Below are positions 2,061 through 64,000 of a DNA stretch of 64,000 nucleotides, in pieces. The DNA is from Thermoanaerobaculia bacterium. Its GTDB lineage: Bacteria; Acidobacteriota; Thermoanaerobaculia; UBA2201; DAOSWS01. A program made the position numbers and the translations under genes. The stretch is from the NCBI GenBank assembly GCA_035593605.1, contig DAOSWS010000005.1, positions 52,834 to 116,833 on the forward strand, read 5' to 3'. The notes beneath the pieces are model-generated. The model was given only the letters and a program-made list of their open reading frames with translations. It made no database searches and was not told the origin of the DNA. How positions within the stretch are numbered: the stretch's first letter is position 1; the number at the start of each line of letters is the position of its first letter.

Positions 2061-2067
2061 GGCTGTC

Positions 2068-11843: not shown

Positions 11844-11853
11844 TTGCGCGGAG

Positions 11854-12603: not shown

Positions 12604-13486
12604 CCAGAGAGCGGAGAAAGGTCAAACCCTTCCACCATGCCAGGGTCATCCATATCCTTAGAATCATGAAGACCTCCTGTCCTGCAAAGCCAAATCCCGT
12701 CATTTCCAGAAGCTCCCGGCTGAGGGACCAGAGGATGTGGAGACCTGTCACCAGAAAAAGAATTGTGGCCAGGTAGAGGAGGGCCGAAGGGAAACGGCGA
12801 AAGGACGTTGCGATTCCATCCACGGCCGACACCCAGAATCCGTGGCTGTCGGGAGAGGCAATCGCCACGCGGGCAAAATCGAGTATGATTTTCAGCCATA
12901 GCATCAGGAGGAGGAAGAGAATCACGGGAATCCAGTGGAAGATGAGGTAGAGGAATTCCGTGGGTGCCGGGTCAAAGAGGTTTGAAATCAGTTCTCCGCC
13001 CCGGATCAAGACAATCTGGTAAAGAAGAATCAGAAGAAAGAGCTGCAGCAGAAAAATGAGAAAATATGACGGAAAGAGACGCATGCAGTCACACCCGAAG
13101 TCCTTCAGGTTGAGCCGGGTTCCACGTTGCCAGTGTCCGAGGATTCCACCAAGAATAAGGGCCCAGAAGATAAGGTAGAGGACTACGGTCACCGCTATGG
13201 AAGAAGGAATGGTTCCGTTGCGGAAAAAATCCCCGAGTACCTGCAACCCCTCAAAGGAGAGAAACTGCTGGAGAGGTTCCAACGACCCCAGTGCCTGTGG
13301 ATCCCTGTCCATCATCAGGGAAAGGGTGTCACCGTTGACCTGGGTTCCCGGGTGGGGAGCCAGAGTGTGATGGGCGTAGGCGTTCCAGAGGAGTGCGGGT
13401 ACGGCGGCCAGGAGGATGTTACCCACAAGGACCAGGAGGATGAAACGGACTTTGAATGCCAGGAGGATCTCTCTCAGAATACGCAT
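12587..13486 (-). CDS. hypothetical polytopic membrane protein
   Basis: Multiple hydrophobic helices. Overlaps the neighbouring gene ends, indicating operon packing. No recognisable motif. Confidence 0.4.
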   Translation of the reverse strand: MRILREILLAFKVRFILLVLVGNILLAAVPALLWNAYAHHTLAPHPGTQVNGDTLSLMMDRDPQALGSLEPLQQFLSFEGLQVLGDFFRNGTIPSSIAVTVVLYLIFWALILGGILGHWQRGTRLNLKDFGCDCMRLFPSYFLIFLLQLFLLILLYQIVLIRGGELISNLFDPAPTEFLYLIFHWIPVILFLLLMLWLKIILDFARVAIASPDSHGFWVSAVDGIATSFRRFPSALLYLATILFLVTGLHILWSLSRELLEMTGFGFAGQEVFMILRIWMTLAWWKGLTFLRSLDELSL

Positions 13487-21418: not shown

Positions 21419-21530
21419 CTCTGTTCCTGCATTACTCTTTCCCGGATTGACATTGAAATGTCCGGGAAAAGAAATCTGTTATCATCCGCAAGTTCTTAAT
21501 GAGCCAAGTTCAGAAAGTGAGGTTCTTTTC

Positions 21531-38061: not shown

Positions 38062-41000
38062 TTAGTCGAAGAGAATAGTGGAAATGTCAAATTGCTTCAC
38101 GAAATCAGCAGCATCTCTGGCCGTCAGGGGACGTGAAATATGGTACCCCTGGGCATAGTTGCATCCCAGATCTTTTAGCGCACGGATCTGCTCGGCCATC
38201 TCGACGCCCTCTCCCATGACCTTCATATTCAGGTGATGGCCCAGCGAAATAATAGTAGATACGATTTCCGAACGGTCTTTGGGAGACTTCATCTTCATAA
38301 TGAAAGATCGATCAATTTTCAGAAAATCCAGAGGAAACTGATGCAGGTAACTCAAGGATGAATATCCAGTGCCAAAATCATCCACCAGGAGCTTGACTCC
38401 CAGTGCCTTCAGCTGAAACAGGGTGGATGTGACATCTTCTACCCGTTCCATGATCATACCTTCGGTGATCTCCAGGCCAAGAGAGTCGGGAGAAAGGTTG
38501 CATATGCGGAGGGTTTCACCGATGAATTCGGGAAGGTCAGGCTGGTAGAGAATGTGGTTGGAGAGGTTAACGGTGCAGGACAGATCTGCGCTTTCCTTCG
38601 TGAGGGATTTCCATTCCGAAAGTTGCCGGCATGTTTCTCCAATGACCCACCGATCAATCTCCGCCATATAGCCGGCATCGGTTGCGATCGTAAGGAAGTC
38701 ATCAGGTGTCATCAATCCCCGCTCCGGATGCTTCCATCGTATGAGGGCTTCAAAACCGTGAACTTTGGACAGATCCAGGTTAATAATCGGTTGGTAATGA
38801 AGGTTGAATTCCTTCCGGTTTAACGCGGATCGGAGCTCGTTCTCAAGCTTGAGGATGGATACGGCCCGGGCATGCATGCCGGCTTCAAAGATGGCGTAGG
38901 AGCCTCTGCCCAGAACTTTTGCCTTGTACATGGCTGATTCGGCATCCCGGAGATAGAGCTCCGGGCGGCTGTGAGCGATATGACTGAAGGAAATTCCGAT
39001 ACAGGCTGAGGTGTAGATTTCATGTTCGCCAATCGTGATGGGAGACTGGAAAGAGGTCAGGATCCGATCTGCCAGACGCGTAACCTCGGAAGGATCTTCA
39101 ACATCCTCGACCAGGATGGCGAACTCGTCTCCTCCGAGCCTTGCAACCGTGTCTCCGGGAAGGAGGCTGCCGCGGATTAATTCTCCGGTTCGTATCAACA
39201 GACGATCTCCGATGAGGTGCCCCAGGCTTTCGTTTATCACCTTGAATCGATCCAGATCGATGTGCAGAACAGCAAATGTGGTTTCTTCACTGCGACGGGT
39301 GCGCTCGATCGCCTGACCGAGACGGTCGGTGAAAAGTGCACGGTTGGGAAGAAGGGTCAGTGCATCGTGAAACGCGTCATGGAGAAGCTGCTCCTCTGCT
39401 CTCTTCCGATCGGTGATGTCGGTCTGGGACCCCGCCATTCGTATGGGACGGTTTTCCTCATCCCGCACGGCCATGCCCCTGGCAAGAACCCAGCGGTAGG
39501 TACCATCCCGATGGACGATTCGGAATTCTCTTTCAAAATGGGGCTCGAGGCCAGCCAGGTGAGCCTGAAAAGCACTTTCCACTTCCAGCCTGTCATCCTC
39601 ATGAATCCGTTCCAGCCATTCTCCAGGTTTGCTGCTTATCTCTTCCTCCGCAAATCCAAGCATCGATTTCCACCGGGGTGAATAATAAACCGTGTCATGC
39701 TTTAAATCCCAATCCCAGAGGCCGTCGTTGGCGCCTTTTGCAGCCAGTGCATAGCGGAGTTCACTTTCCTGAAGAGCCGTTTCAGATTTTTTCCGGTTTG
39801 AAGATTCTACCGCAAGGGAAACAAGGTCGGCCATCGATGCCGCGAAGAGTTCCTCATCAAATTCCCACGCTCTTCTTGGGCCAATATGTTCATGACAGAG
39901 GATCCCGATCACTTCTCCGCCGATACGGATCTGGGCATCGATCATGGAGGAAATGTGGTTTGGTTTCAGGTAGCCATTTGCAAATTCTCGCGTTCGGGGA
40001 TCGGTGAGCACGTCGTCGGTGGCTATCGTGCGGGATTCCCGGATCGATTTAAAATAGACCGGGAAATCCGCGACGGCGAGCTGGATACCGGAATCGTGAA
40101 AATCATCGCTTCGCGAATAGAGGTCAATACAGTCTAATTGTTTTCCGTCGCCCGAGAACATCCATACACTGACGCGCTCGACATCAAGGGTCTCTGCGGC
40201 TTTCCGGGTAACCTGACGGATGAAAGCAGGGAGATCGCCATGGGAAAGCTCGGCGCTTTTCGTCAGATCCAGCAGAACCCTGTTCTGGGTTCGAAGACGG
40301 TGATCACTGTCGCGAATAATGCTCTCCGCCCTTTTTCGATCCGTGATGTCGCGGCCGATTCCCTGTAAGGTTCCATCGGGTAGACGGACTGCGGAGATTT
40401 CCACGGGGAATTCCGTTCCATCTTTTCTTTTGAATGTCCGCTCAAGAAGGACCGCACGCTTTTCCCGTAAAGACGGTATCTGAAGGGGAAGGCGTTTCAG
40501 ATCTCGCTCTGGAATCAGTTCAGTGTACAATTTTCCGATTAATTCTTCCTTTGAATACCCTGTCATATTGCATGCAGCCTGGTTGACCTGGAGAATTCGG
40601 GCATCGTCACTGACAATGTAGATGGCATCGGAAGCCTGTTCGATGAGCGTCCGATAACGTACTTCACTTTCGATCACTGCACGCTGGGATTTGACGATCG
40701 ATGTAATATCTTCCACGGTTCCATCGTAGTACAGTACTTCTCCGGCGTCGTTCCGAACGACAGTCGAATTTTCCCTGACAAAGAGAGAGGAACCATCTTT
40801 CCTTTTCCACTCCGCCTCAAACCCCTGAATCGTTCCTGAAGCATGGATGACTTCCAGAAATTCTTTTCTGGTGCATGCATCTTTGTATCCCGATTCTCGG
40901 ACATCGATGGAAGAGAGGTCCTCAAACGATGAATAACCCAGCATGGAAACCAGCGCAGGATTCGCCATCAATACCTTTCCGTCAGGCGAAGTCCGATAGA

Positions 41001-43707
41001 TCCCGATGAGGGCGTTTTCATAGAGGCTTCGGAATCGTTCCTCCGATTCACGGATTCGTTCCTCCGAGAGCTTCTTTTCCGTAATGTCATCTTCGATCCC
41101 GATCATGTGCGTGATCGCGCCGTCATCATCTTTCAGAGGAGAAACGGTGAGGTGGACCCAGAATAGTTCACCGGTCTTTTTCCGATTCACAAGTTCTCCA
41201 GACCAGACGTCACCTGCTTTCACCGTTCTCCAAAGGTTCTCATGTACCTGCGGATCGTGATAGTCGGATTGAAGAATATCCGGTGTCTTCCCGATTGCCT
41301 CTTCTCGCGGCCAGCCGGTCACCTGGACGAAACGCTCGTTTACGTACTCGATCGCCCCTTCTGGATTGGTAATAATGATAATACTGCCACTTTGCTCCAC
41401 GGCACTGGAAAGCATGCGCAGTTGAGCCTGTGTCTTTCTTTCCCGGGTCGTATCTCGAATCGTTCCAAGGGTGGCAGGGGCGCCCATGTACTGGATTAAT
41501 CCTGCTGTGATGTGACAGTAAAGACGATGGCCCTCTTTGTGAATGAGGCGGATGTCATATTCAGAGGGAATGCTTTCCCCTGCCTGCCTTCGTGCATATC
41601 GGTCCAGCACCATCTCCTTGTCTTCGGGCGCGAGGATGTCTTCGTACGACACGGCCATAAACTCGGGGTGGGTGTAGCCCAGCATTTCGGCAAAGGCCTC
41701 GTTGGCGAAGATCATCTTTTGCCCCTGAAGGAGAAAAACGCCGTCGTGGATGTGCTCCACCAGAGTGCGGTAATGTTCTTCCGATTCCTTCAGCCTCTGT
41801 TCTGACCGCTTCTGATCCGTGATGTCTTTCAGGGTTCCCAGGCTGGCCACGCTGCCTTTGTAATTCAACAGACCGACGTGCATGAAAACATGGACGCGGG
41901 AACCATTCCGGTGGAGAAGCCTGAATTCGTATTCATCCGGAACGTCCTCTCCAGCCTGGCGTTTTGTGTACCGATCCACTACCCAGTCGTGGTCCTCCGG
42001 GGCGATGATGGAGTCGAAGGGGAGGGAAAGCAGGTCATTGGAACTCATTCCGACCATGCGGGCGAAAGCTTCGTTGACGTATTTGAAAATGTTGTCCTGG
42101 ATTAGAAAGACACCATCTTGGATGTTTTGAAGGAGAGTCCGGTAGTGTTCCTCCGATTCCCGAATTTTTTCTTCCGCCTGCTTCGACTCCGTGATATCAC
42201 GTACAATTCCGCAGATGGAGTGAACCCTGTCCCCTTCCATCTCCAGAGGGACCTGTACGGTATGAAAATAGTGGATTTTTCCACCAATGGTCAGTTCTCG
42301 AATTTCATCGACGATCTCTCCGCTGAAAGCCGCATTATCGACTTCCCGAATAATGGTGGCCGCTTCCGGAGGAAAGAGATCTTCAGGACACTTGCCCAGA
42401 AGCTCTCTCTGGGAGACTCCAAAGAGACGGGCCATGGAAGGATTGACAAAGGTGTACCTGCGGTCCATGTCCTTTATGAAGATGGAGTCTCGCGCGGTTT
42501 CGGTGATGGCTCTAAACCGCGCCTCGCTCTCTTTTACCTTCTTTTCGGCCCTGCGAAGTTCTTCAAGGTTTCTTACAAGAGCGACGGCAATGGGTTCATT
42601 TTTTCCCGTGCGCAGAACTTCTCCGATTCTCCGGAGGCGGACTTCCACGGGAAACTGCGTACCGTCGGCTCTTTTTGCCATCCATTCCACATCGACGGAT
42701 TCCCCGTCCAGGGCTCGTTTGACATATTGAAAGGCCTGCTCCTTTGTGCACCCGTCTCCCATGAACTGTTCGGGATCGTTCTGAAGGATTGCATCCTTAG
42801 AACATTGATACGCCTTCAGGACGTTGGCATTGACGTCGATCAGGCGTCCATCCGCTCCGTGGATAAAGATCATGTCGGGGGATGCATCGTAAATCGCCTG
42901 GAGAAAATCTCTCGCTTCCCTCAGGGATTCTTCCGCATGAACTCTCTCGGTCACATCCTCACCCGATGAGAGGGTGTGCGTGATGAACCCGTTCTCATCC
43001 CGGAGGTAGGTGTTGCGCCATTCGATCAGCCGCTCATCCCCCTTCCTGGTCCGGACCGGGTTGGCGTATTCAGTGAAGGCCTGGACCTGCCCGTGGATCA
43101 GGGATTCAAATACTCCCTTCAGCTCTCCCGCCATCCGGGAGGGAATAAAGGAGTCAAACCAGTTCTTTCCCACAATTTCAGAGACGGAATAGCCAAGAAT
43201 TTCAGCACCCTTCCTGTTGATATGGACAATTTGTGCCTGTGGATTCAGAATTAGAAGGATTACGTTTGCGACATCAAAATACTTCTGAGCCAGGTCGCGC
43301 TGGTGTTCCAGCTCCCGGATGACCGCGATCCTCTCGCTAATGTCTCGAAAAAGTCCCAGAACATGGGTCTTTCCCTCAATTACGAGATTTTTTGCGCTGA
43401 TTTCGACCGGGATGCGCTTTCCGCTGGAATGAACCACTTCCAGCGGCTCGGATATCGCTTTCCCTAAAGCCTTATGATCCTGGAAAATCTTTCTGTAGCG
43501 CTCCCGATCTTCGGGCGGGTGCAGTTCTGACTGATGCTTTCCCAGGATCTGGTCCCGGGGCAGTCCGAGCAGTTCCTCAGACCGGTGGTTGATTTCTACG
43601 ATCACGCCCCTGTCGTCGGCGATAAAAATGGCATCGTTCGCACTGTCCAGAAACGAACGTGCTTCCTCCGGCAGATGGAAGATTCCTGAATCAGACTCAG
43701 GGTCCAT
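38062..43707 (-). CDS. multi-PAS/GAF sensor diguanylate cyclase/phosphodiesterase (GGDEF-EAL)
   Basis: About 10 PAS/PAC units (recurring …NEAF…G(Y/W)…E(E/D)…G motifs) and a GAF. GGDEF (RLGGDEFAIL). C-terminal EAL domain (…QPI…EALIRW…, DDFGTGYSSL). 1881 aa. Confidence 0.85.
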   Translation of the reverse strand: MDPESDSGIFHLPEEARSFLDSANDAIFIADDRGVIVEINHRSEELLGLPRDQILGKHQSELHPPEDRERYRKIFQDHKALGKAISEPLEVVHSSGKRIPVEISAKNLVIEGKTHVLGLFRDISERIAVIRELEHQRDLAQKYFDVANVILLILNPQAQIVHINRKGAEILGYSVSEIVGKNWFDSFIPSRMAGELKGVFESLIHGQVQAFTEYANPVRTRKGDERLIEWRNTYLRDENGFITHTLSSGEDVTERVHAEESLREARDFLQAIYDASPDMIFIHGADGRLIDVNANVLKAYQCSKDAILQNDPEQFMGDGCTKEQAFQYVKRALDGESVDVEWMAKRADGTQFPVEVRLRRIGEVLRTGKNEPIAVALVRNLEELRRAEKKVKESEARFRAITETARDSIFIKDMDRRYTFVNPSMARLFGVSQRELLGKCPEDLFPPEAATIIREVDNAAFSGEIVDEIRELTIGGKIHYFHTVQVPLEMEGDRVHSICGIVRDITESKQAEEKIRESEEHYRTLLQNIQDGVFLIQDNIFKYVNEAFARMVGMSSNDLLSLPFDSIIAPEDHDWVVDRYTKRQAGEDVPDEYEFRLLHRNGSRVHVFMHVGLLNYKGSVASLGTLKDITDQKRSEQRLKESEEHYRTLVEHIHDGVFLLQGQKMIFANEAFAEMLGYTHPEFMAVSYEDILAPEDKEMVLDRYARRQAGESIPSEYDIRLIHKEGHRLYCHITAGLIQYMGAPATLGTIRDTTRERKTQAQLRMLSSAVEQSGSIIIITNPEGAIEYVNERFVQVTGWPREEAIGKTPDILQSDYHDPQVHENLWRTVKAGDVWSGELVNRKKTGELFWVHLTVSPLKDDDGAITHMIGIEDDITEKKLSEERIRESEERFRSLYENALIGIYRTSPDGKVLMANPALVSMLGYSSFEDLSSIDVRESGYKDACTRKEFLEVIHASGTIQGFEAEWKRKDGSSLFVRENSTVVRNDAGEVLYYDGTVEDITSIVKSQRAVIESEVRYRTLIEQASDAIYIVSDDARILQVNQAACNMTGYSKEELIGKLYTELIPERDLKRLPLQIPSLREKRAVLLERTFKRKDGTEFPVEISAVRLPDGTLQGIGRDITDRKRAESIIRDSDHRLRTQNRVLLDLTKSAELSHGDLPAFIRQVTRKAAETLDVERVSVWMFSGDGKQLDCIDLYSRSDDFHDSGIQLAVADFPVYFKSIRESRTIATDDVLTDPRTREFANGYLKPNHISSMIDAQIRIGGEVIGILCHEHIGPRRAWEFDEELFAASMADLVSLAVESSNRKKSETALQESELRYALAAKGANDGLWDWDLKHDTVYYSPRWKSMLGFAEEEISSKPGEWLERIHEDDRLEVESAFQAHLAGLEPHFEREFRIVHRDGTYRWVLARGMAVRDEENRPIRMAGSQTDITDRKRAEEQLLHDAFHDALTLLPNRALFTDRLGQAIERTRRSEETTFAVLHIDLDRFKVINESLGHLIGDRLLIRTGELIRGSLLPGDTVARLGGDEFAILVEDVEDPSEVTRLADRILTSFQSPITIGEHEIYTSACIGISFSHIAHSRPELYLRDAESAMYKAKVLGRGSYAIFEAGMHARAVSILKLENELRSALNRKEFNLHYQPIINLDLSKVHGFEALIRWKHPERGLMTPDDFLTIATDAGYMAEIDRWVIGETCRQLSEWKSLTKESADLSCTVNLSNHILYQPDLPEFIGETLRICNLSPDSLGLEITEGMIMERVEDVTSTLFQLKALGVKLLVDDFGTGYSSLSYLHQFPLDFLKIDRSFIMKMKSPKDRSEIVSTIISLGHHLNMKVMGEGVEMAEQIRALKDLGCNYAQGYHISRPLTARDAADFVKQFDISTILFD

Positions 43708-52794: not shown

Positions 52795-52824
52795 AAAAAA
52801 AACACCCCGGCATTGCCGGGGCGT
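52795..52824. terminator. rho-independent terminator (strong on - strand, weaker on + strand)
   Basis: CCCCGGCAATGCCGGGG stem flanked by AAAAAAAA (a T8 run on the minus strand, right after the stop of the 52846-58509 gene). Also lies 3' of mutL. Confidence 0.8.
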
Positions 52825-52845
52825 TGAAGTTTAATGATCTGGAAG

Positions 52846-55800
52846 TCAATTACAGGTAAAGGTGACCTGTATTTTCCAGGTTCCCCCGTCGTTGTACTTG
52901 TTGAGATAGATCGTGCAGTTCCCGACGAGCTCGTAGAAAACCAGCGGCCGTCCGTTGTCGGTCAGAACAGTAGGATCCGGGTCGACGTAGGGTGAGGTGA
53001 TATCGGCGGCGTAAAAGTCGTCGTCATCTTCGGAGCCGTTGGCTTCCATCATCGAGCCTTCCCCTTCGTCGGCAACCATGTTCGCCCCGGAGGGATCAAG
53101 GGCCGGGTCAGCAGGATGGGTCTGCACAAAGATCGCGTTCAAGGCTGTGGAGAGGGGATTCGTAGAAGCAATCTCGTCATTCCGGAGAAGGTCGGGAATC
53201 GGGATCGGTCCCGAATCGGGATCTAGGTAGTCGGGAATCCCGTCGTTATCCTGGTCGTCATCACTCCAGTCTCCATTCCCGTTGGTGTCCTCCTCCGAGG
53301 TGTCATAGCCGTCCCCGTCGTCATCCACATCCTGAAAGTCGGGTTTCCCGTCCGTGTCGGTGTCCTGAAGGGTCGCCGGGGTCGTCTCGTAGGAGTCATC
53401 CAGGCCGTTTCCGTTTGTGTCGGTAATCGTGTCGATCTGACCGTCGCCATTCGAGTCCACGACCGTCGTATTGTCGTTCACGCCGTCATGATCCGCGTCG
53501 TTCCCCTCGATCAGGTCTTCCACCCCGTCTCCGTCGGCATCAAGGTCCTGAAAGTCCGGGCTGCCGTCCCCGTCGGTGTCGACGGGCTTGGTTCCCAGAT
53601 CACTGTCTCCCGCTTCGTCCGCGTCGGGGATCCCGTCGTTGTCACAGTCCAGGTCGAGGTAGTTGGGTACTCCATCCCCGTCGAAGTCTCCGAAGGATTC
53701 GTCCTCGTCGGAGATCGTGTCCCCGTCGGAGTCCAGGTCCAGGTAGTTGGGAATTCCATCCCCGTCCGGGTCGCCCAGGCCTTCCTGACCGTCCGAGATT
53801 CCATCATCGTCGCTATCGGGGTCCCTGAAGTCGGGGATCCCGTCTCCGTCGGTGTCCACCGGGGGTGTGTCCGGGTTCCCGTCGCCCCCTTCCACGGAAT
53901 CGGGGATCCCGTCGTTGTCCGAGTCAAGGTCCAGGTAGTCGGGAATCCCATCGCCATCCGTGTCCCCCGCACCCTCATCGCTGTCGTAAATCCCGTCCCC
54001 GTCACTGTCCAGGTCCTGGTCGTTGGGGATCCCGTCTCCGTCCTGGTCATCCAGCGGGGCCGAATTCTCCGTCACGTCAGGAATCCCATCGTTGTCACTG
54101 TCCGTAAGGGCGTCGGGATCCAGAAAGTCGGGCTGTGTATCCCCGTCGCCGTCTCCCGTCCCTTCAATCCGATCAGGAATCCCGTCGTCATCGGAGTCCG
54201 GATCCAGGTAGTTGGGAATTCCATCACTATCCGTGTCGTCCCCGATCGGGCTCGTGTCTCCCCCGAAGCGGTCGTATTCGTTTGCGGTGGGGATCCCGTC
54301 GTTGTCATCGTCAGTGTCAAGGAAATCGGGATTGCCATCATTGTCGCTGTCCTGCAGTGCCGCCGGTGTCGTCTCATAGGTGTCATCCAGGCCGTTGCCG
54401 TTCGCATCGGTGATCGTGTCGATTCGGCCGTCGTTGTCGGCATCGGTCACGCCGGTGTTGTCATTGGCGCCATCCTGGTCGGCATCGTTCCCTTCGATCA
54501 GGTCCCACACGCCGTCGCCATCACTGTCCAGGTCGAGGTAGTTGGGAATTCCGTCTCCATCAAAATCTCCCGCTCCCTCCGCTGCATCCGGAATCCCGTC
54601 GTTGTCACTGTCAAGATCGAGATAGTCCGCGACGCCGTCCCCGTCACTGTCCCCCGATCCTTCTGTTACGTCAGAGATCCCGTCCCCGTCGCTGTCCGTT
54701 GGTACGTCGGGATCCAGAAAGTCCGGCGATCCGTCTGTGTCGGAGTCCGCCGTACCCTCAATCTGGTCCGGAAGTCCATCCGCGTCGGAGTCCAGGTCCA
54801 GGTAGTTGGGTATGCCATCCCCATCGTAATCATCGGTCCCGGTTCCGCTGTCTTCCACGCTGTCCGGAATCCCGTCGCCGTCGGAGTCGGGATCCAGGAA
54901 ATTGGGAATCCCGTCCCCGTCGATATCCCCGGTGCCTTCGATACTGTCGGGAATGCCGTCCCCGTCGGAGTCGTCATCGATGTAGTTCCCCAGCCCGTCT
55001 CCGCCATCCGCTGTGTCCCCTGTATGTTCCGTAGCGTCGGGGATGCCGTCGCTATCGGAGTCGAGGTCGAGGTAATTGGGGTTCCCGTTGGAGTTCGTGT
55101 CATCATCTGTGGGATCGCCGTTCCCGTTGGCGTCTTCGTCCGCCGTGGGGATGCTGTCCCCGTCATCGTCCGGATCGAGATAGTCAGGGAGGGTATCGCC
55201 GTCGAAGTTCTGCGTAACGGCCGGCGTGCCTCCTTCGCTGGGGTCGTAGTGGTCGTCCCACCCGTCTCCGTCTGCGTCGGTGATTGTGTCGATCCTGCCG
55301 TCATTGTCCGCGTCGGTAACTGCATAGTCGGTAACACCGTCAAAGTTTGCATCATTGCCTTCGATAAGGTCCCACACTCCGTCGCCGTCCGAGTCCAGGT
55401 CGAGGTAGTTCGGAATTCCGTCCCCGTCGGCATCTCCCGTTCCTTCCACTGCGTCCGCAATCCCATCGTTGTCCGCATCCAGATCTGGAGTGTCGGCAAT
55501 TCCGTCCCCGTCGGTGTCAGGTTCCAGTACGAAGTCATCCATGGCGGCCGCGTCCGGATCCGTTGGGGAATAAAGGGGCGGGATCGGTGCCCCGGTGGGA
55601 TAGATCACTGCGTGCCAGGTTCCTTCCGAGCCCAGGCTCGAACCGTCGACGCTCGTCGACAGCTCACCTGATCCGTTGGTGATCACGGTCTGGGTGAGTA
55701 CGAGGGTTCCGTCTTCATCGTAGTACACCACCGTATACGACGTTGTGGGCAGGAGGGGACTTCCGTAAAGATAGATCGTATCGGCCAGCGTAAAGTAATC

Positions 55801-58509
55801 TTCAGGGTCGGTCCAGGAGGCATCGGCGTAGGAAGCCAGGGCCGTGCCCACCGGGATGGGGAAGGTGGCCGTGGCGATCGTGTTGTCGCAGGACCCCAGC
55901 CAGTAGACCTGAATCGTGTAGATTCCCTCTACCGGGAAGGATACGTTGTTGACCGAGACTGTCTCCGTGGCCGAATCGCCCGCTGCAATCGTGTGGGGCA
56001 GGGTGATCCTTGTGAACAGGGCCGAATCATAGGAGGAAAAGGTCCCGGAGGAAGTAAGGTATTGTGTGCCATCCGGGTTGATGACCCGGTAGCGGTATGT
56101 GGTGTCGTAATAGACGGCTCCCGTGGATGTGTTATTGAATGTAGCCGTCACGGTGAGGTTGTTGCCCGTCAGGCTGTACGAGGCCCGGTTCGTCGTGATC
56201 GGACCGATTGTCGACGGTGTGGCGGCAGGGTCAAGGGTGATGAGAATCGTGTCAAGAAGCGTGCCGGACTGGTAGAGTCGAACCGTCCAGGTACCCAGCG
56301 TGTCTGTCGAGGTGAAGGTGTACTCGTCCAGGGCGTCCCCGCTTCCGTCCGTCGGTACCGTGTGGGACTGGATCGCCGTACTCGAAGAGGGGGGGAAGAT
56401 GTCGATCCGGTATGTGGTCGTCGTCGACAGGGTCAGCGATGCCCCCTGCAGGTATACCGTGTCACACCGGGCAAAGAAGGTCTGGGAGATCGTGCGGTTA
56501 GGATCAGCATACGCGGCAATGTAGCTGACCGTGAGCTGGTCCGTGACTGCCGCCGTGGCTCCAGTGCCCGACGTCGCCGTCACTGTGGTCGAGTTCTGCA
56601 CGGGATAACTGGTCGGGGCCAGATCGGGAACGATGATCTCCACCACAAGGTCCATTTCCCCACCATACGCAGGAAGGGAAAACGTACCTGTAATCTGGTT
56701 TCCATCGGACGGGTTTCCGTCCCCGTCCGGATCGGTGTAATACCGGACCGTCCATCCCTGCGTCGAGGTCTGGCTCAGCGTGATCGTTTCGGATGTAATC
56801 CAGGAATTGATCAGCGTGTGGGCAAAGAAGACCGAACGGCTGTCCCCGCTGAACTTGTTTGTGTTATTTGAAAAGAGGTAGGAAGGGGTCAAGGTCAGAC
56901 GGCTCCGGATCGTTGTCGTGAGCTGAGCGTCATCCGACGTGCCGTAAATGTCGCCTACGGCTGTAACGGAGGTTACATCCACGTCGTTCAGAGTTCCTGA
57001 ATAGACCCGTACACGGAAGGTTACCGGTGTGCCGTTGAAGACCGTCCCGAAATCGGGATAGCCGTTACTGTTCGTGTCATATCCGCTCTGGATCGATTCA
57101 AAGCTCCCGTCCCCGTTTGTGTCCTCCGCGACAAGGGCCCCGCCTCCGGTGTAGATCTGCAGGCGGTAGCCGAGAGACGAAAGGACGTACAGATCAAAAA
57201 CGTCGTCCAGACCGTTATTGGTCAGCGTCAATGTGTACTCGGCATATTGCCCCACGGCGGCTGCCCCTGTCTGGAGTGACGGCTGGAGTGTAACCTGGCC
57301 AATTCCTGTGATGTCGGTGACTGAATCGTACGAGTCCAGAGGCTCGGTCAGCGAAATTGCGGTAAGGATCGTTGTGTCGATCACGTCCGTGATCCCGGCC
57401 GCGGCCGTCAGTTCCAGGCGCAGGGAAAAGGTGTTTCCGGGAGAGGCCGTTGTCAGAATCGGCGTGTCGGGGCGTGTGTCCCCCGTTCCGGAATCGCTGT
57501 TATACACAGGGTTGACGTAGTCCCAGTCCCCGTCTCCATCGGTGTCCGAGGCCATCAGGGTGTTCGTGCCGTCATCGTAAAGATCGGCCGGAAGAGCCAG
57601 GCTGGAGGAAATCTCAAAGTTGTACTCGTCGTCCAGCGTGCCTGTGTTTTTGCAGGTATGGTAATAGGTAATCGTTGCGGGATTCCCCGGCGCCACCGTC
57701 TGGGATTCGTTGTCATAAAGATCCACCAGGTAAAAGGCGAAGGAGCCGATCCCTCCGTCTGGACCGCCGAGGTTGTCGTCAATCTGCGCCGGAACCGTGC
57801 CTCCGTTGGAATTGTTGCTGGAGGAAACGTGAAAGTAGACCGGCGTCCCGGCGGGGACCCCCAGGTTTGTCCAGGGAAGGCGGCATTCGAAGCCGCGGCC
57901 GTCGGCAAAGCCGCCGATTGTGTTGGTATAGATCGTGACAGGAGGATAGGGCGCCTTGGTGTAGAGTGTTCCCGGCAGTGTATAACCGTCAGCGTACCCG
58001 GAGGCATCCACGAGGCTGTCCCCGTTGGTGTCATCCACGGCGTTATAGGTGAAGAGGTACGCTTCCGTGTTCCGGTTGGAACCATTAAGGACAACCTGAA
58101 AGACCTTTTCCCCGTCGTTCATACGCTTGTTCCGGCTGGTATCGCAGTAAAAATAGTAGGTCTGCGTGTTGGTAGAACTTCCGTACCGGGATACGTACAT
58201 GTAGATATTGGAGCCGTCATATGTCCAGGCAAAACGGTTCAGGTCCCGTCCCGAAATGTTTGTATTATTCGTGCAGTCCCGGTCCAGGGGCGGAACGTTG
58301 CACTGTGGAGAAAACTCTCCGTCGTTCGTCACCTGGAGCGGATTGGAAAGGATCGGAGCCCAGTCCGTTGCCACGCCATCCACGGTGATCGTCTTCAGGG
58401 TCGGTCCGGCCGCAAAGAGTGACAGCGCGGTGAGAATCATCAGAAGTACAAAAACCGAACATCGATACAAAAATGCGCCTGCCAGTACATGTGATTTCAT
58501 AAAATTCAT
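52846..58509 (-). CDS. giant secreted calcium-binding repeat protein (thrombospondin type-3-like Asp-rich repeats) with conserved C-terminal tail
   Basis: Signal peptide. About 950-aa beta-rich N-terminal region. Then dozens of D-x-D-x-DG-(I/V)-x-D/DLDSDGDGIPD repeats of TSP3/OmpA-associated type. C-terminal …PLVFYEL…KIQVTFTCN. 1887 aa. Confidence 0.7.
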   Translation of the reverse strand: MNFMKSHVLAGAFLYRCSVFVLLMILTALSLFAAGPTLKTITVDGVATDWAPILSNPLQVTNDGEFSPQCNVPPLDRDCTNNTNISGRDLNRFAWTYDGSNIYMYVSRYGSSTNTQTYYFYCDTSRNKRMNDGEKVFQVVLNGSNRNTEAYLFTYNAVDDTNGDSLVDASGYADGYTLPGTLYTKAPYPPVTIYTNTIGGFADGRGFECRLPWTNLGVPAGTPVYFHVSSSNNSNGGTVPAQIDDNLGGPDGGIGSFAFYLVDLYDNESQTVAPGNPATITYYHTCKNTGTLDDEYNFEISSSLALPADLYDDGTNTLMASDTDGDGDWDYVNPVYNSDSGTGDTRPDTPILTTASPGNTFSLRLELTAAAGITDVIDTTILTAISLTEPLDSYDSVTDITGIGQVTLQPSLQTGAAAVGQYAEYTLTLTNNGLDDVFDLYVLSSLGYRLQIYTGGGALVAEDTNGDGSFESIQSGYDTNSNGYPDFGTVFNGTPVTFRVRVYSGTLNDVDVTSVTAVGDIYGTSDDAQLTTTIRSRLTLTPSYLFSNNTNKFSGDSRSVFFAHTLINSWITSETITLSQTSTQGWTVRYYTDPDGDGNPSDGNQITGTFSLPAYGGEMDLVVEIIVPDLAPTSYPVQNSTTVTATSGTGATAAVTDQLTVSYIAAYADPNRTISQTFFARCDTVYLQGASLTLSTTTTYRIDIFPPSSSTAIQSHTVPTDGSGDALDEYTFTSTDTLGTWTVRLYQSGTLLDTILITLDPAATPSTIGPITTNRASYSLTGNNLTVTATFNNTSTGAVYYDTTYRYRVINPDGTQYLTSSGTFSSYDSALFTRITLPHTIAAGDSATETVSVNNVSFPVEGIYTIQVYWLGSCDNTIATATFPIPVGTALASYADASWTDPEDYFTLADTIYLYGSPLLPTTSYTVVYYDEDGTLVLTQTVITNGSGELSTSVDGSSLGSEGTWHAVIYPTGAPIPPLYSPTDPDAAAMDDFVLEPDTDGDGIADTPDLDADNDGIADAVEGTGDADGDGIPNYLDLDSDGDGVWDLIEGNDANFDGVTDYAVTDADNDGRIDTITDADGDGWDDHYDPSEGGTPAVTQNFDGDTLPDYLDPDDDGDSIPTADEDANGNGDPTDDDTNSNGNPNYLDLDSDSDGIPDATEHTGDTADGGDGLGNYIDDDSDGDGIPDSIEGTGDIDGDGIPNFLDPDSDGDGIPDSVEDSGTGTDDYDGDGIPNYLDLDSDADGLPDQIEGTADSDTDGSPDFLDPDVPTDSDGDGISDVTEGSGDSDGDGVADYLDLDSDNDGIPDAAEGAGDFDGDGIPNYLDLDSDGDGVWDLIEGNDADQDGANDNTGVTDADNDGRIDTITDANGNGLDDTYETTPAALQDSDNDGNPDFLDTDDDNDGIPTANEYDRFGGDTSPIGDDTDSDGIPNYLDPDSDDDGIPDRIEGTGDGDGDTQPDFLDPDALTDSDNDGIPDVTENSAPLDDQDGDGIPNDQDLDSDGDGIYDSDEGAGDTDGDGIPDYLDLDSDNDGIPDSVEGGDGNPDTPPVDTDGDGIPDFRDPDSDDDGISDGQEGLGDPDGDGIPNYLDLDSDGDTISDEDESFGDFDGDGVPNYLDLDCDNDGIPDADEAGDSDLGTKPVDTDGDGSPDFQDLDADGDGVEDLIEGNDADHDGVNDNTTVVDSNGDGQIDTITDTNGNGLDDSYETTPATLQDTDTDGKPDFQDVDDDGDGYDTSEEDTNGNGDWSDDDQDNDGIPDYLDPDSGPIPIPDLLRNDEIASTNPLSTALNAIFVQTHPADPALDPSGANMVADEGEGSMMEANGSEDDDDFYAADITSPYVDPDPTVLTDNGRPLVFYELVGNCTIYLNKYNDGGTWKIQVTFTCN

Positions 58510-58850: not shown

Positions 58851-58881
58851 TTAAAAAAAACGCCCCGGCAAAGCCGGGGCG
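58851..58881 (-). terminator. rho-independent terminator of the 58905-64000 gene
   Basis: GCCCCGGCTTTGCCGGGGC hairpin on the minus strand followed by T8 (A8 at 58853-58860 on +). Lies 20 nt 3' of the TGA stop. Confidence 0.85.
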
Positions 58882-58904
58882 CTGAAGTTCTGCGGGAGAA
58901 AAGA

Positions 58905-61900
58905 TCAGTTGTAGGTAATGACGACCTTTCCGCCGGATTTGGTGACCATGACCGTATCCAGACCCTTGGTCAGTTCATAGAAGATCAACGGCTCAGCGCC
59001 CGGGTCAAGGTCATTGGTTTCATTGGGAAATGGATCGTTGGATAGGAATTGGGCCTTTTCCAGGTCACGCCCGGGGTTAAGACCGGGGTCGCCGGGGTAG
59101 GGCCGGAAGTTGAAGATCTCGGCGAAGGTTAATGTGGCTGCATCGTCGTTACGCAGGAGCCAGACGTCATCGACCCGAACCGTCTTGGTATCTGACGTGA
59201 CACATCCGTGAACGTCCGTGAACGTATAGGTAATGACGAATGTACCAACTCCCGCCAGAGTTGGACTGAATGTACCCAGTGAGCCATTGGTGATCCCGGT
59301 TCCAGACCAGATTCCTGACGCGGGAGAAGCGCCGCTCAGGTTGAAGGGATCGGCACCGAGCCACGTAATCTCATCGGCTCCCGCTTCGGTCGTGGTGTAG
59401 TACCACTGGCCGGTTGACGCCAGGGGATCCATATTGAAACAGGCCCCCGAAGCCGTGCCGCGGTCGGTGACCAAACAGTTGTAGGTGTGGGTTTCCGCGC
59501 CGCTGTGGGTTACGGAAAGAACGGTGTTGACCGACATGAAGATATCGGATATGTCCGCAACTCCACCGCCACCACATCCGCTCAGTTCAAAGATGTAGAG
59601 CTTGTAGTTCCCGGGACCGTGTGCCGGATCGTTGTAGAAAAGGGTGATGTCATAGGGTGCGGCTGAAGGAACGCCATAATCCTTCAGGACGATTCGATCC
59701 AGGTTTGGGGCTTCCAGTTCAATCCGCACACAGTTAAGAAGGTCGGTGGTTCCGCCAAGGATGTAGTAGACCCTGGCGATGTCGGCAGGCGGTGCGATGG
59801 TAAAACCGTTCAGGGTAAAGGCCTGTCCACCCGAGAGATCGTTATCCACGATGCCTGCCTGACCGGCTCTCCATGCTGCTTCTCCAGCTTCTCCGGGCAT
59901 GTCTGAGCCGTCTTCCTGCCACTGGGTGGTGTAAATTCCCGTCCCGCCCGTGGCGCGGACGATGAAGTCCAGGTACTCATCATAGCAGGTGGATGTCGTG
60001 GCGTTGGGTGTGACGTCAACTGAGACGCCCGTCACAACGGTAACGCTGGTGGTTTCGCTGTCGGAACATCCGTATCCGTCTTCCACGGTCAGGAGGTACG
60101 TTCCGCTGTTGGCTGTCGAAGCTCCGACGATCGTTGGATTCCTGTCAAAGGAGTCGAATCCGTTGGGACCGGTCCAGTGGTAGGAAACCATTCCGTCCGG
60201 GCCGCCGAATAGTTCGATGGTTTCACCTTCGCAGTAGGCGCCCGTGTTTGTAGCTGTGGCTACCGGGTCGGAGACTCGCACGTTCTTTGTGTCAGCGTTG
60301 AAGCAGGTACCGTCGAAGATCGTGTAGGTGAGGGTGTGAATCCCGGCTCCAGCCACGGCAGGGTTAAAGGTACCCAGGCCGGGGTTTGTGATTCCCGTAC
60401 CGCTCCAGACTCCGCCCGCAGGAGAAAAGCCGGTCATGTTGTAGGGCGGAGTGTTAATGCAGACATTATCATTGGAGCCTGCATCGACGGCCGGAAGCGC
60501 ATTGACGATAACGGTGGTTGATGTGCTGGCAATGCAGCCGTTGCTGTCTGTTACCGTCAGAGAGTAAGAACCGGCCTGTGCCAGGGTGATTCCCACGATC
60601 TGGGGGCTCTGTTGTGAACTCGTGTATCCATTAGGTCCTACCCAGCTGTATATGGACATACCCGCGGGGCCGCCAGTAAGCTGGAGGATTCCTCCTTCAC
60701 AAACCGGACCGTTATTGGAGGCGGTCACGGCCGGTGGAGCATTAACTGTTACCGTTGTCTGGGCCTGATCGGTGCAGCCTGCAGCATTGGTCACGGTCAG
60801 CGTGTAGACGCCATTATGAGAGGAAGTCGTTACGAGAATGGTTGGGCTCTGGAGTGAACTCGTGTATCCATTCGGTCCTGTCCAGCTGTAGGAGCTCATA
60901 CCGGCGGGACCGCCGATGAGTTGAACCGGAAATCCCTCGCAGACCGGGCCTGTGTTGGAAGCCGTGGCTGTGGGAGATGCATTAACCGTAACGGAGGTCG
61001 TCGTCTGATCGGTACAGCCATTGGCATCGGTTACTGTGAGCGTGTAGACACCCGCAGCCGCGGATGTGGCATCGGCAATGGTCGGGCTCTGGAGAGATGA
61101 CGTGAAGCCATTCGGTCCTGTCCAGGCATAGGAAGCCATGCTGTCGGGTTCACCGGTCAGGTCGATCGTATCACCTTCACAGTACGGTCCGCCGTTGGAG
61201 GCGGCAGCTGTTGGAGGTGTATTGACCACGACGGTCGTCGTATCCTGTCCGGTACATCCTCCGGAATTGGTTGCGGTCAGCGTGTAGTCTCCACCCATCG
61301 CCGCTGTTGCGGCCGGGATTGAAGGATTCTGTTCACTGGATGTAAATCCGTTCGGGCCGGTCCATGCGTAGGATGCCATGCTGTCCGGTGAACCGTTCAG
61401 CTGAATCGTGTCCCCCTCACAGTAGGGTCCGGTGTTCGAAGCTGTAGCCGTGACGCCAATATCGACAGTTACCGAAGTTGTTGCGTCATCGGTGCATCCA
61501 TCGGCATTCGTTACGGTAAGAGTATATACACCGGCCATTGCGGTTGTCGAAGAGAGAATCGAAGGACTCTGTTCACTGGAGGTATACCCGTTGGGACCTG
61601 TCCATGCGTAAGAGGACATCCCATCCGGACCGCCCGTGAGCTCGATGGTCTGGCCTTCGCAGTAGGGGCCGCCGTTGGAGGCCGAAGCCACCGGTGCGGT
61701 ATTCACCACCACCGTGGTTGTGTCCTGATTCGTGCATCCATCACCATCGGTGACGGTCAGCGTGTAGTCACCCGCCATGGCGACCGTTGCGGAGAGAATG
61801 GAAGGACTCTGTTCGCTGGATGTGTACCCGTTCGGACCCGTCCATGCATAGGTTGTCATGCCGTCGGGAGCACCGGTCAGCTGGATCGTGTCTCCTTCGC

Positions 61901-64000
61901 AGTAGGGACCGCCGTTCGTGGCCGTGGCTGTCGGCTGTGTCCATTCACCGGTGTTGCTGGTCAGGTCGGACGTGGCGCAGCCGGAGGTGGTGCCCAGGTC
62001 GCTGATGAGGCAGTTGTAAGCGTGACTCTGGGGCGTGGAGTAGGTGAGGGTCAGCTTGTGGTTGACCCCCATGAAGATATCGGAAATGTCCGCAGAACCG
62101 GTGTCGCATCCGGAAAGTTCCAGGACAATCAGATTGTAGTCGCCGGGGCCGTACGTATTGTAAAACCCCGTGATATCGAAGGGGGAAGCTGCGGCAACGC
62201 CGTAGTCTTTCACCACCAGACGGTCAAGCGTGGGGGCTTCCAGCTCGATCCGGACACAGTTCAGCAGGTCGGTGGTCCCGCCCAGTGTGTAGTAAAGTTC
62301 GGCAAGATCCGCAGGGGAAGCAATCGTGAAACCGTTCAGGGCAAAGGACGCACCGGCGGGATCGTTGTCGATCAAACCGGTAGCTCCCGTGTTCCAGGCG
62401 GCTTCACCCGTCTTGCCCGCCAGATCACCGCCATCTTCCTGCCACTGGAGACCGTAGATTCCCGATCCGCCGGAGGCAAAGACGTTGAAGGTGATGTTTT
62501 CATCGACGCAGGCCGAAGACGTGCCGTCGGGCGTGGCATCGACGGTCATCACCGTGTAGACAGATACCGTGGTTGTCTCAGCGTCAGAGCAGCCGTTGGC
62601 ATCGGTTACCGTCAGTGTGTAGACTCCTGCCTCTGCAGTGGTAGCGGATGCAATCGCGGGGCTCTGTTCCGAAGAGGTGAATCCGTTGGGGCCTGTCCAG
62701 GCATAGGTGGTCATTCCGTCGGGTCCGCCCGTCAGCTGGATCGTTTCCCCTTCGCAGTAGGGACCGCCATTGGAGGCCGTGGCCACCGGGGCTGCGTTCA
62801 CGACGACATCCGTCGTGTCCTGGCCGGTACAGCCGTTGGTGTCCGTGACCGTCAATGTGTAGGTGCCGGCTGCAGCCAGTGTCGCTGCCAGCGTTGGACT
62901 CTGCTGGTCGGAGGTGAATCCGTCCGGTCCGGTCCAGGCATAGATCGCCATGCTGTCCGGGGCGCCGGTGAGCTGGATCGTGTCACCCTCACAGTAGGGT
63001 CCGCCGTTGGAGGCCGCAGCCACCGGGGGCGTATTGACGACAACATCCGTCGTATCCTGACCCGTGCAGCCGCTTCCGTCCGTAATCGTCAGGGTATAGG
63101 TGCCTGCAGCCGCCAGGGTCGCGGGAACGGTTGGATTCTGTAATGCTGACGAGAATCCATCCGGTCCGGTCCAGGCATAGATCGCCATGCCGTCGGGAGC
63201 GCCGGTCAGCTGGATCGTGTCTCCCACGCAGTAGGGCCCGCCGTTGGTGGCCGTAGCTACCGGAGCCGCGTTCACGACAACGGTAGTCGTGTCCTGATTC
63301 GTGCATCCATCACCATCGGTGACGGTCAGCGTGTAGTCACCCGCCATGGCGACCGTTGCGGAGAGAATGGAAGGACTCTGTTCGCTGGATGTGTACCCGT
63401 TCGGACCCGTCCATGCATAGGTTGTCATGCCGTCGGGAGCACCGGTCAGCTGGATCGTGTCTCCTTCGCAGTAGGGACCGCCGTTCGTGGCCGTGGCTGT
63501 CGGCTGTGTCCATTCACCGGTGTTGCTGGTCAGGTCGGACGTGGCGCAGCCGGAGGTGGTGCCCAGGTCGCTGATGAGGCAGTTGTAAGCGTGACTCTGG
63601 GGCGTGGAGTAGGTGAGGGTCAGCTTGTGGTTGACCCCCATGAAGATATCGGAAATGTCCGCAGAACCGGTGTCGCATCCGGAAAGTTCCAGGACAATCA
63701 GATTGTAGTCGCCGGGGCCGTACGTATTGTAAAACCCCGTGATATCGAAGGGGGAAGCTGCGGCAACGCCGTAGTCTTTCACCACCAGACGGTCAAGCGT
63801 GGGGGCTTCCAGCTCGATCCGGACACAGTTCAGCAGGTCGGTGGTCCCGCCCAGTGTGTAGTAAAGTTCGGCAAGATCCGCAGGGGAAGCAATCGTGAAA
63901 CCGTTCAGGGCAAAGGACGCACCGGCGGGATCGTTGTCGATCAAACCGGTAGCTCCCGTGTTCCAGGCGGCTTCACCCGTCTTGCCCGCCAGATCACCGC
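58905..64000 (-). CDS. giant repeat-containing surface protein (SprB-like about 80-aa Ig-like repeats with Cys pair), 5' end beyond window
   Basis: At least 11 repeats of …NGGPYCEGDTIQLTG.PDGM..YAWTGPNG(F/Y)TS….P.I……AG.YTLTVTD.(N/D)GC…TTV.V… Three copies of a separate 150-aa module. C-terminal tail homologous to the neighbouring giant protein. The ORF is still open at the window edge. Confidence 0.7.
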   Translation of the reverse strand, partial: GDLAGKTGEAAWNTGATGLIDNDPAGASFALNGFTIASPADLAELYYTLGGTTDLLNCVRIELEAPTLDRLVVKDYGVAAASPFDITGFYNTYGPGDYNLIVLELSGCDTGSADISDIFMGVNHKLTLTYSTPQSHAYNCLISDLGTTSGCATSDLTSNTGEWTQPTATATNGGPYCEGDTIQLTGAPDGMTTYAWTGPNGYTSSEQSPSILSATVAMAGDYTLTVTDGDGCTNQDTTTVVVNAAPVATATNGGPYCVGDTIQLTGAPDGMAIYAWTGPDGFSSALQNPTVPATLAAAGTYTLTITDGSGCTGQDTTDVVVNTPPVAAASNGGPYCEGDTIQLTGAPDSMAIYAWTGPDGFTSDQQSPTLAATLAAAGTYTLTVTDTNGCTGQDTTDVVVNAAPVATASNGGPYCEGETIQLTGGPDGMTTYAWTGPNGFTSSEQSPAIASATTAEAGVYTLTVTDANGCSDAETTTVSVYTVMTVDATPDGTSSACVDENITFNVFASGGSGIYGLQWQEDGGDLAGKTGEAAWNTGATGLIDNDPAGASFALNGFTIASPADLAELYYTLGGTTDLLNCVRIELEAPTLDRLVVKDYGVAAASPFDITGFYNTYGPGDYNLIVLELSGCDTGSADISDIFMGVNHKLTLTYSTPQSHAYNCLISDLGTTSGCATSDLTSNTGEWTQPTATATNGGPYCEGDTIQLTGAPDGMTTYAWTGPNGYTSSEQSPSILSATVAMAGDYTLTVTDGDGCTNQDTTTVVVNTAPVASASNGGPYCEGQTIELTGGPDGMSSYAWTGPNGYTSSEQSPSILSSTTAMAGVYTLTVTNADGCTDDATTSVTVDIGVTATASNTGPYCEGDTIQLNGSPDSMASYAWTGPNGFTSSEQNPSIPAATAAMGGDYTLTATNSGGCTGQDTTTVVVNTPPTAAASNGGPYCEGDTIDLTGEPDSMASYAWTGPNGFTSSLQSPTIADATSAAAGVYTLTVTDANGCTDQTTTSVTVNASPTATASNTGPVCEGFPVQLIGGPAGMSSYSWTGPNGYTSSLQSPTILVTTSSHNGVYTLTVTNAAGCTDQAQTTVTVNAPPAVTASNNGPVCEGGILQLTGGPAGMSIYSWVGPNGYTSSQQSPQIVGITLAQAGSYSLTVTDSNGCIASTSTTVIVNALPAVDAGSNDNVCINTPPYNMTGFSPAGGVWSGTGITNPGLGTFNPAVAGAGIHTLTYTIFDGTCFNADTKNVRVSDPVATATNTGAYCEGETIELFGGPDGMVSYHWTGPNGFDSFDRNPTIVGASTANSGTYLLTVEDGYGCSDSETTSVTVVTGVSVDVTPNATTSTCYDEYLDFIVRATGGTGIYTTQWQEDGSDMPGEAGEAAWRAGQAGIVDNDLSGGQAFTLNGFTIAPPADIARVYYILGGTTDLLNCVRIELEAPNLDRIVLKDYGVPSAAPYDITLFYNDPAHGPGNYKLYIFELSGCGGGGVADISDIFMSVNTVLSVTHSGAETHTYNCLVTDRGTASGACFNMDPLASTGQWYYTTTEAGADEITWLGADPFNLSGASPASGIWSGTGITNGSLGTFSPTLAGVGTFVITYTFTDVHGCVTSDTKTVRVDDVWLLRNDDAATLTFAEIFNFRPYPGDPGLNPGRDLEKAQFLSNDPFPNETNDLDPGAEPLIFYELTKGLDTVMVTKSGGKVVITYN
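61720..62431. repeat. exact intragenic direct repeat copy 1 (partner 63289-64000, period 1569 bp)
   Basis: 61722-62431 is nucleotide-identical to 63291-64000 as far as the window allows. Identity is confirmed by the identical 72-aa frame-artifact ORFs 61787-62005 and 63356-63574. Sequence upstream of the left boundary differs. Confidence 0.85.
63289..64000. repeat. exact intragenic direct repeat copy 2 (truncated by window edge)
   Basis: See copy 1. Confidence 0.85.

Follow-up and report, generated by a model that had tools for sequence, protein, structure and literature searches.

Two giant proteins encoded in tandem in a 64,000-nucleotide stretch of DNA from a Thermoanaerobaculia bacterium metagenome-assembled genome (MAG), here named protA and protB, end in tails that profile comparison identifies as the long and short forms of one homologous domain family. 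The whole stretch that was analysed is called the window below. The family, characterized by the pattern LLRND…RPLVFYEL, is a lineage-restricted terminal domain for which no existing model was found, and it is carried by Sec-exported giant repeat proteins. Judged from its sequence, its position and its range of carriers, the tail is probably a surface-docking or sorting tag. Shared terminal tags on surface proteins are known as a kind; what is new is the sequence family and its predicted fold, for which no described equivalent in the host phylum was found within the search.

The tail domain and its family

The tail of protA (positions 52849–53199, minus strand; stop codon at 52846–52848) is the long form of the domain, with approximately 117 residues reading IPDLLRND…IF…DPALDP…EGEG…NGSEDDDDFY…DPDPTVLTDNGRPLVFYEL…WKIQVTFTCN. 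The tail of protB (58908–59171, minus strand; stop codon at 58905–58907) is the short form, with approximately 88 residues reading VWLLRNDD…IFNFRPYPGDPGLNP…DLDPGAEPLIFYEL…GGKVVITYN, and it lacks the acidic insert of approximately 22 residues (GEG…GS-DDDD) that is present in the protA tail. The two tails end in …NKYNDGGTWKIQVTFTCN and …TKSGGKVVITYN. The protA tail contains 20 Asp and Glu residues versus 4 Lys and Arg residues. Reading of both window tails revealed no hydrophobic stretch as long as 15 residues, no transmembrane segment and no basic tail, and their net charge is strongly negative.

An initial annotation of the window had aligned the tails of the two proteins and quoted their common motifs. 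The alignment is borne out: LLRND, DPxL(D/N)P, (R/E)PL(V/I)FYEL and K(I/V)x(V/I)T(F/Y) occur in both tails, and pairwise BLASTP gives 30% identity (E = 0.002), a modest score taken alone. The annotated range was accurate for protB, whereas the protA tail, given as approximately 90 residues reaching to 53120, begins further upstream at the IPDLLRND motif. The homology itself is real, because profiles built without the window sequences cross-detect both tails. A hidden Markov model (HMM) of the long type, derived from 84 relatives, matches the protB tail with an E value of 6.5e-9 (protA tail, E = 1.4e-41), and an HMM of the short type, derived from 11 relatives, matches the protA tail with an E value of 1.5e-13 (protB tail, E = 8.3e-29). 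The profile of the family matches the protA tail at E = 4.2e-39. The profile matches of both window tails end 1–3 residues from the stop codon, and intermediate forms in the family alignment bridge the long and short tails. Both tails are thus members of the family, defined by a significant profile match at the terminus of a protein.

The extent of the family was determined by an exhaustive HMMER profile search of 1.84 billion cluster-representative proteins, which returned 154 proteins at E ≤ 1e-3, 93 at E ≤ 1e-10 and 16 at E ≤ 1e-30. A word-indexed homologue search with the 2-sequence and 59-sequence alignments gave no more than 4 and 10 short fragments, and none of the long proteins. The family signature is LLR(N/S)D … IF … (P)xDP(A/S)L(D/E) … [GEG…GS-DDDD-Y, long form] … DP(D/E)xxVLxD … RPL(V/I)FY(E/Q)L … L-L-K … I-I-(T/S)-(Y/F/W). 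The domain spans approximately 75–125 residues and is acidic in all of its forms, with a median net charge of −8. Three forms, connected by intermediates, are distinguished: a long form similar to that of protA, which has the GEG…GS-DDDD-Y insert, a short form similar to that of protB, and a still shorter form of approximately 75–80 residues. The protA and protB tails are accordingly of different subtypes, each with relatives of its own.

In 140 of 150 representatives (approximately 93%), no more than 25 residues separate the domain from the C-terminus. Its final strand ends in Tyr, Phe or Trp in 108 of 127 members; the aromatic residue is itself the last residue in 75 of the 127, and at most three residues follow it in 121. 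Where the domain is not at the C-terminus, it is at the mature N-terminus just past the signal peptide, and no internal or repeated copy is present in the 150 representatives. The N-terminal arrangement, with the domain directly after the signal peptide, is found in approximately seven representatives (approximately 5%). The domain is followed by Cys-rich repeats in five of them (P0073, P0085, P0087, P0093 and P0099) and by an RCC1 propeller in P0113 and P0130. P0113 and P0085 are complete genes within their contigs. One assembly, GCA_039029535.1, encodes on different contigs the N-terminal carrier P0073 and a C-terminal carrier, the FG-GAP protein P0063.

The Cys-rich units of the first five proteins (loci L006 and L030) are arranged in many tandem copies of approximately 45 residues with the pattern GACC…C.D.V….C…GG.Y.GD.T.C…PC. 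They may represent another undescribed repeat; for the complete gene P0085, the precomputed Pfam record is empty. P0113 and P0130 (L007, positions 8001–9656) have a signal peptide, a short-form domain and an RCC1-type β-propeller, and are thus secreted RCC1 proteins with the terminal module; the neighbouring gene encodes a protein with Peptidase_M23, Laminin_G and TSP3 modules.

As read from the sequences, many members have a CxxC motif or two paired Cys residues close to the last hairpin. In many long-form members, the CxxC motif lies just before this hairpin (for example, ELSCSGCTLFL). In protA and its orthologues, the Cys residue before the hairpin is paired instead with one in the terminal …T(F/Y)TC(N/P/Q). 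The two arrangements probably represent alternative disulfides, and such pairs would fit an oxidizing, extracytoplasmic location.

Carriers range from a few hundred to 3156 residues in length and are mostly large and repeat-rich. Of 51 full-length-like members, 41 have a Sec-type hydrophobic N-terminus, as judged by a crude test of hydrophobicity. The modules found in carriers comprise Big_6, Big_13, DUF11, FG-GAP, MG2-like, PKD/Ig_7, TSP3, RCC1 and Cys-rich repeats, and several carriers have no Pfam match at all. At least five recurrent, unrelated classes of N-terminal head can be read from their sequences. The suggestion in the initial annotation that the tail may be shared by large adhesins of this organism therefore agrees with the 154 representatives, many of which are Sec-exported carriers with different heads.

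All five labelled sources belong to the Acidobacteriota. They include another Thermoanaerobaculia MAG (locus L002), the contig of P0013, which is labelled Acidobacteriota_UBA4820, and the single Acidobacteriota MAG that is the source of both P0063 and P0073. Further carriers in the genome of the window itself had been anticipated, and a third one was found at another locus of the MAG (P0137, HPR62624.1, locus tag PK014_00245; the window pair is PK014_02885 and PK014_02890), among housekeeping genes on a 282-kb contig. Several carriers can thus occupy unlinked loci in one genome. At locus L001 (positions 7934–10243; JGI sample 3300003891), runs of N in the scaffold break a low-GC protA orthologue into several called genes; the 80-residue P0003 is only the C-terminal fragment of this orthologue.

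Neither window tail, nor any of 59 diverse members of the family, has a meaningful match in Pfam-A or NCBIfam, in line with the initial annotation, which had seen no obvious resemblance to known sorting signatures. The best matches are confined to single members with E ≥ 0.03, which is at chance level. These libraries hold models for Por_Secre_tail, CHU_C and type B (TIGR04131) domains, PEP-CTERM and LPXTG. The type A C-terminal domain (CTD) of the system for type IX secretion (T9SS; TIGR04183/PF18962) was detected in neither tail at E ≤ 1, nor in the 59 members. The single TIGR04183 signal in protB is internal (residues 974–994), lies outside the tail and, at 22.5 bits, is below the cut-off of 23. 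The type B CTD (TIGR04131/CHU_C) likewise gave no NCBIfam or Pfam match, and no neighbouring gene was conserved across 30 loci. No NCBIfam model of the sortase-type -CTERM signals matched (best E = 0.14, in one member), and no Pfam dockerin was detected in the 59 members. As to RTX proteins and the type I secretion system (T1SS), the carriers have signal peptides, the only T1SS repeat match is a chance-level one in a single member (E = 0.16), and the tail sequences that were read contain no GGxGxD repeats.

An AlphaFold2 model of the protA domain, computed from a 59-sequence alignment, has a predicted local distance difference test (pLDDT) score of 96.1 and a predicted template modelling (pTM) score of 0.88. 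It has a short N-terminal strand (LLRN), ordered loops of considerable length, another strand at VFYE and, at its end, a β-hairpin, and does not adopt the Ig-like β-sandwich fold of solved T9SS CTDs. No structural neighbour was detected in the PDB libraries searched, and the family profile has no match among PDB sequences at E ≤ 10. The structure libraries include T9SS CTD structures. From their sequences, the long and short subtypes are proposed to share one fold. A search of the literature for an acidobacterial sorting domain or adhesin returned nothing relevant.

The protA and protB genes and their surroundings

The protA gene (52846–58509, minus strand) encodes a protein of 1887 residues, composed of a signal peptide, a head of approximately 1000 residues, a TSP3-repeat stalk and the tail domain (HPR63144.1, annotated as hypothetical protein). 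The 3′ part of the protB gene (58905–64000, minus strand) contributes 1697 of 3156 codons to the window and encodes PKD/Ig_7 repeats followed by the tail domain (HPR63143.1, also annotated as hypothetical protein). The gene begins beyond the window end at 64000; the full-length form of 3156 residues is P0039, from 150-kb JGI contigs that match the window. A Pfam scan assigned the Ig_7 repeats of protB to the Ig type that is associated with CHU_C.

The Sec-type signal peptide of protA (58411–58509, minus strand) was read from the translation as …VFVLLMILTALSLFAAG/PTL, and a similar N-terminus is present in most full-length family members. The protA head (residues approximately 35–992; 55534–58407, minus strand) is homologous to the first approximately 1000 residues of protB, with 32% identity over 1034 columns (E = 8e-103; BLASTP of P0005 against P0039). 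Both proteins open with a signal peptide that is followed by the 'LKTITVDG..DW' head with Ig-like modules. The proteins diverge in the central stalk, which is made up of PKD/Ig_7 repeats in protB and of Asp-rich, thrombospondin type-3-like repeats in protA (residues approximately 995–1765; 53215–55527, minus strand). The protA repeats are evident in the translation, and Pfam TSP_3 is matched in eight stretches, sub-threshold for the whole protein. The protB head, which lies beyond the window and could not be seen from it, is located at positions 10001–13100 of locus L003; the 'LKTITVDG..DW' head, which has no Pfam match, is also present in P0018, P0025, P0094, P0137 and P0150.

As judged by the approximately 1000-residue N-terminal head that they have in common, protA and protB are tandem paralogues. 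The initial annotation had drawn its argument from a tail shared by proteins of otherwise unrelated architectures; because the two proteins are paralogues, that argument does not hold. Their 3′ ends also correspond. A terminator-like hairpin with an 11-bp stem and a T run lies approximately 20 nt past the protA stop codon (52801–52825, minus strand), and a near-identical one lies approximately 20 nt past that of protB (58859–58883, minus strand). The motif, GCCCCGGC-NNN-GCCGGGG followed by a T run, occurs at these two sites only in the 64-kb window, compared with 0.05 expected occurrences, and was not found after the gene of the third carrier (L028). The similarity of the 3′ untranslated regions at the DNA level is higher than that of the coding tails. 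With such a hairpin after each gene, protA and protB appear to be transcribed separately and to have a 3′ end that was duplicated. Given the paralogy and the near-identical terminators, the pair alone does not show that the tail is a mobile module; the evidence for this is the wider family.

At least 712 nt of the protB gene are repeated in direct orientation with 100% identity (61720–62431 and 63289–64000, offset 1569 nt); the repeat is cut by the window end and doubles a block of PKD/Ig repeats. An assembly artefact was considered and is unlikely: the repeat is probably real and recent, because the identical product of 3156 residues is recorded in JGI, ENA and NCBI, and the JGI records include two contigs.

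The immediate flanks of the two giant genes in the window hold only the terminators and then mutL. This side continues with ppdK, glyQS, recO and an arginase-family gene, and on the longer contig the other flank encodes an SLT-domain protein, deoxyhypusine synthase and GGDEF proteins. Apart from the window pair, six-frame profile scans revealed one tail domain per locus in 30 loci. The search for related loci with trimmed alignments, which reaches the long subtype only, gave one genome locus and 20 metagenome loci. No SprA/Sov, PorV, PorU or GldKLMN genes were found in the window or in the retrieved loci.

Several other genes were observed in the window and on the longer contig. The sole outer-membrane-transporter-like gene of the window encodes a 400-residue Omp85-superfamily protein (21447–22649, plus strand), adjoins the gene of a transglutaminase-like protein and is separated by approximately 30 kb from the giant genes; no connection with the tail domain emerged. 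A few kilobases from the giant genes, a cytoplasmic signalling protein of 1881 residues (38062–43707, minus strand) has many PAS-like modules together with a GAF-like region, and its ends are GGDEF-like and EAL-like, as read from its translation. On the longer contig (L003), two Y_Y_Y/GGDEF proteins are encoded just upstream of protB. At 414–3456 (plus strand), a DUF3373 protein and, after it, a cytochrome c with several haems (Cytochrome_cB, C7 and NrfB-like motifs) form a possible outer-membrane electron-transfer pair.

Possible roles: docking, export or structural end-piece

The reading that we favour, while granting it somewhat less than an even chance, is that the tail domain is a docking or retention handle for surface proteins. 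The domain would be an independently folding extracytoplasmic module whose stability probably comes from Ca2+ bound in the Asp-rich loops and, for some members, from a disulfide. After Sec export, the tail would bind a shared receptor, either protein or glycan, in the outer membrane or at the cell surface, and would thereby hold head–stalk–tail proteins on the surface by the end opposite the functional head. Docking or retention is favoured because the domain is found at either terminus, because the module appears to be folded, acidic and probably Ca2+-dependent rather than a linear signal, and because the tail sits opposite a large conserved head, where fibrillar adhesins carry their anchor. 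In particular, the N-terminal copies fit better with a terminal docking or anchoring module than with an obligate C-terminal export signal.

Several observations weigh against this assignment. The extreme C-terminal bias and the terminal aromatic residue also fit a true C-terminal recognition signal. The confident model of the protA tail, being mostly loops and without a PDB analogue, offers no clue to function, and the AlphaFold2 model of the protB-type tail (21 sequences) is of low confidence, with a pLDDT of 58.7. Binding of Ca2+ by the tail is suggested by composition alone, and the taxonomic labels cover five sources only. Clustering of open reading frames in the 30 loci revealed no recurrent neighbour family except sigma-54 activators, which are common anyway, and the 64-kb window contains no gene that resembles dedicated machinery. 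A lack of conserved neighbours is also usual for T9SS and sortase cargo.

The strongest competitor of the docking handle, which we hold as a tentative second reading, makes the domain an outer-membrane translocation signal: the cargo tag of a dedicated acidobacterial pathway and a functional analogue of the T9SS CTD, with Sec export to the periplasm, CTD-dependent passage of the outer membrane and possibly cleavage. The extreme C-terminal location in most members, commonly with a terminal aromatic residue, and the several unlinked carriers per genome agree with such a signal, as does the place of the protB tail after SprB-like PKD/Ig_7 repeats, which is that of the type B CTD in Bacteroidota. 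The giant adhesin-like carriers with Sec signal peptides follow the same logic as T9SS substrates, which combine a signal peptide with a CTD (PMC12618676). However, N-terminal copies occur in complete genes that have no C-terminal copy, and there is neither HMM nor fold similarity to T9SS CTDs. Moreover, the partners of type B CTD proteins are PorP-like proteins (PMC9143113), whereas no PorP/SprF-like or other conserved gene adjoins the tail carriers in the 30 loci, and the T9SS is described as limited to the Bacteroidota or the Fibrobacteres–Chlorobi–Bacteroidetes (FCB) group (PMC11611037, PMC12398890). It is rather doubtful, but conceivable, that the tail marks the cargo of an undescribed pathway for outer-membrane secretion and attachment in the Acidobacteriota, a functional counterpart of the T9SS with an unrelated fold, whose receptor or translocon would be among the co-occurring proteins.

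An absence of any sorting role is unlikely. The domain would then be a structural or functional end-piece, such as a Ca2+-dependent folding nucleus, a stalk cap, an oligomerization knob or a ligand-binding tip. Its globular, acidic and confidently predicted fold is compatible with an end-piece, as are its occurrence at either terminus, the lack of associated machinery in the 30 loci and the Ca2+-binding repeat type of the protA stalk itself (TSP3). However, the domain follows TSP3, PKD/Ig, FG-GAP, DUF11 and Big_6 modules and precedes RCC1 and Cys-rich repeats; because it adjoins such different modules, a cap specific to one repeat type is unlikely. It is also never internal and never repeated in the 150 representatives, and in head–stalk–tail proteins the large conserved head at the opposite end is more likely to be the binding part. 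Trivial paralogy, by which protA and protB would share the tail merely as tandem duplicates and with no wider meaning, is very improbable. It would account for the common head and for the near-identical terminators at these two sites only, but it is contradicted by the 154 representative clusters, by their unrelated heads in several Acidobacteriota MAGs, and by the different subtypes of the two tails. Equally hard to credit is the view that the tail belongs, as a divergent form, to one of the known sorting domains (T9SS type A or B CTD, PEP-CTERM, LPXTG, dockerin or RTX/T1SS signal), which the similar position and type of carrier and the sub-threshold, though internal, TIGR04183 match in protB might suggest. 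None of the 59 members matches any such model at E ≤ 0.1, PDB sequences give no match, and the tails that were read have no transmembrane segment, basic tail or GGxGxD motif, on carriers that have signal peptides.

Outside the well-studied phyla, little is known of the way in which diderm bacteria bring giant adhesin-like proteins to their surface, and the Acidobacteriota are abundant and rarely cultured. A lineage-specific tag is a means of listing the surface-protein repertoire, and at least three 'hypothetical' proteins of this MAG have already been picked out by it. The domain could also be used as bait for a receptor or translocon in phylogenetic profiling and co-folding screens. Should the domain turn out to be a structural end-cap and nothing more, the gain would be confined to a new family for domain annotation.

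Comparison with known surface-protein tags

The LPXTG, PEP-CTERM and other -CTERM signals are similar to the tail domain in being C-terminal tags common to many surface proteins of a lineage. However, the sortase-type signals consist of a short motif that is followed by a transmembrane helix and a basic C-terminal cluster, all within approximately 25–35 residues, whereas the tail is an acidic globular module of 75–125 residues without a hydrophobic helix. RTX/T1SS adhesins are likewise giant repeat proteins with an acidic, probably Ca2+-binding C-terminal region; in contrast to them, the tail carriers have Sec signal peptides, the tail lacks GGxGxD nonapeptides, and no genes for ATP-binding cassette transporters, membrane fusion proteins or TolC lie beside the window genes.

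The last strand of the tail resembles the β-signal of outer-membrane proteins in being amphipathic and ending in Tyr, Phe or Trp, often as the final residue. In the tail, however, there is no β-barrel, the hairpin belongs to a small soluble domain, and by our own reading the register from Gly to the terminal aromatic residue differs from that of the canonical motif. The terminal strand as a β-signal of this type was therefore kept as a lead only, on account of the register and because N-terminal copies expose no free C-terminus.

The tail domain also resembles the T9SS CTDs, which are likewise terminal domains of approximately 80–120 residues on Sec-exported, often giant surface proteins with Ig/PKD repeats, with many unlinked carriers per genome. 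In Bacteroidota, Ig_7/PKD repeats precede the type B CTD, and the protB repeats, being of the CHU_C-associated Ig_7 type, resemble those of type B cargo. Unlike T9SS CTDs, the tail domain has no HMM match and no fold neighbour in the PDB libraries searched, occurs in the Acidobacteriota and also at the N-terminus, and has no PorP-like neighbour.

Dockerins are usually C-terminal and sometimes N-terminal, are found on many carriers per genome and form a non-covalent tether to a surface scaffold. The tail domain differs from them in having no duplicated EF-hand-like motif or Pfam match, in a predicted β- and loop-rich fold with no helical pair, and in that no cohesin-like partner was identified. 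It is similar to dockerins in being small, acidic, presumably Ca2+-dependent and located at a protein terminus. The role proposed for the tail would accordingly be closer to that of a dockerin, or to anchoring by a T9SS CTD, than to that of a linear, cleavable signal.

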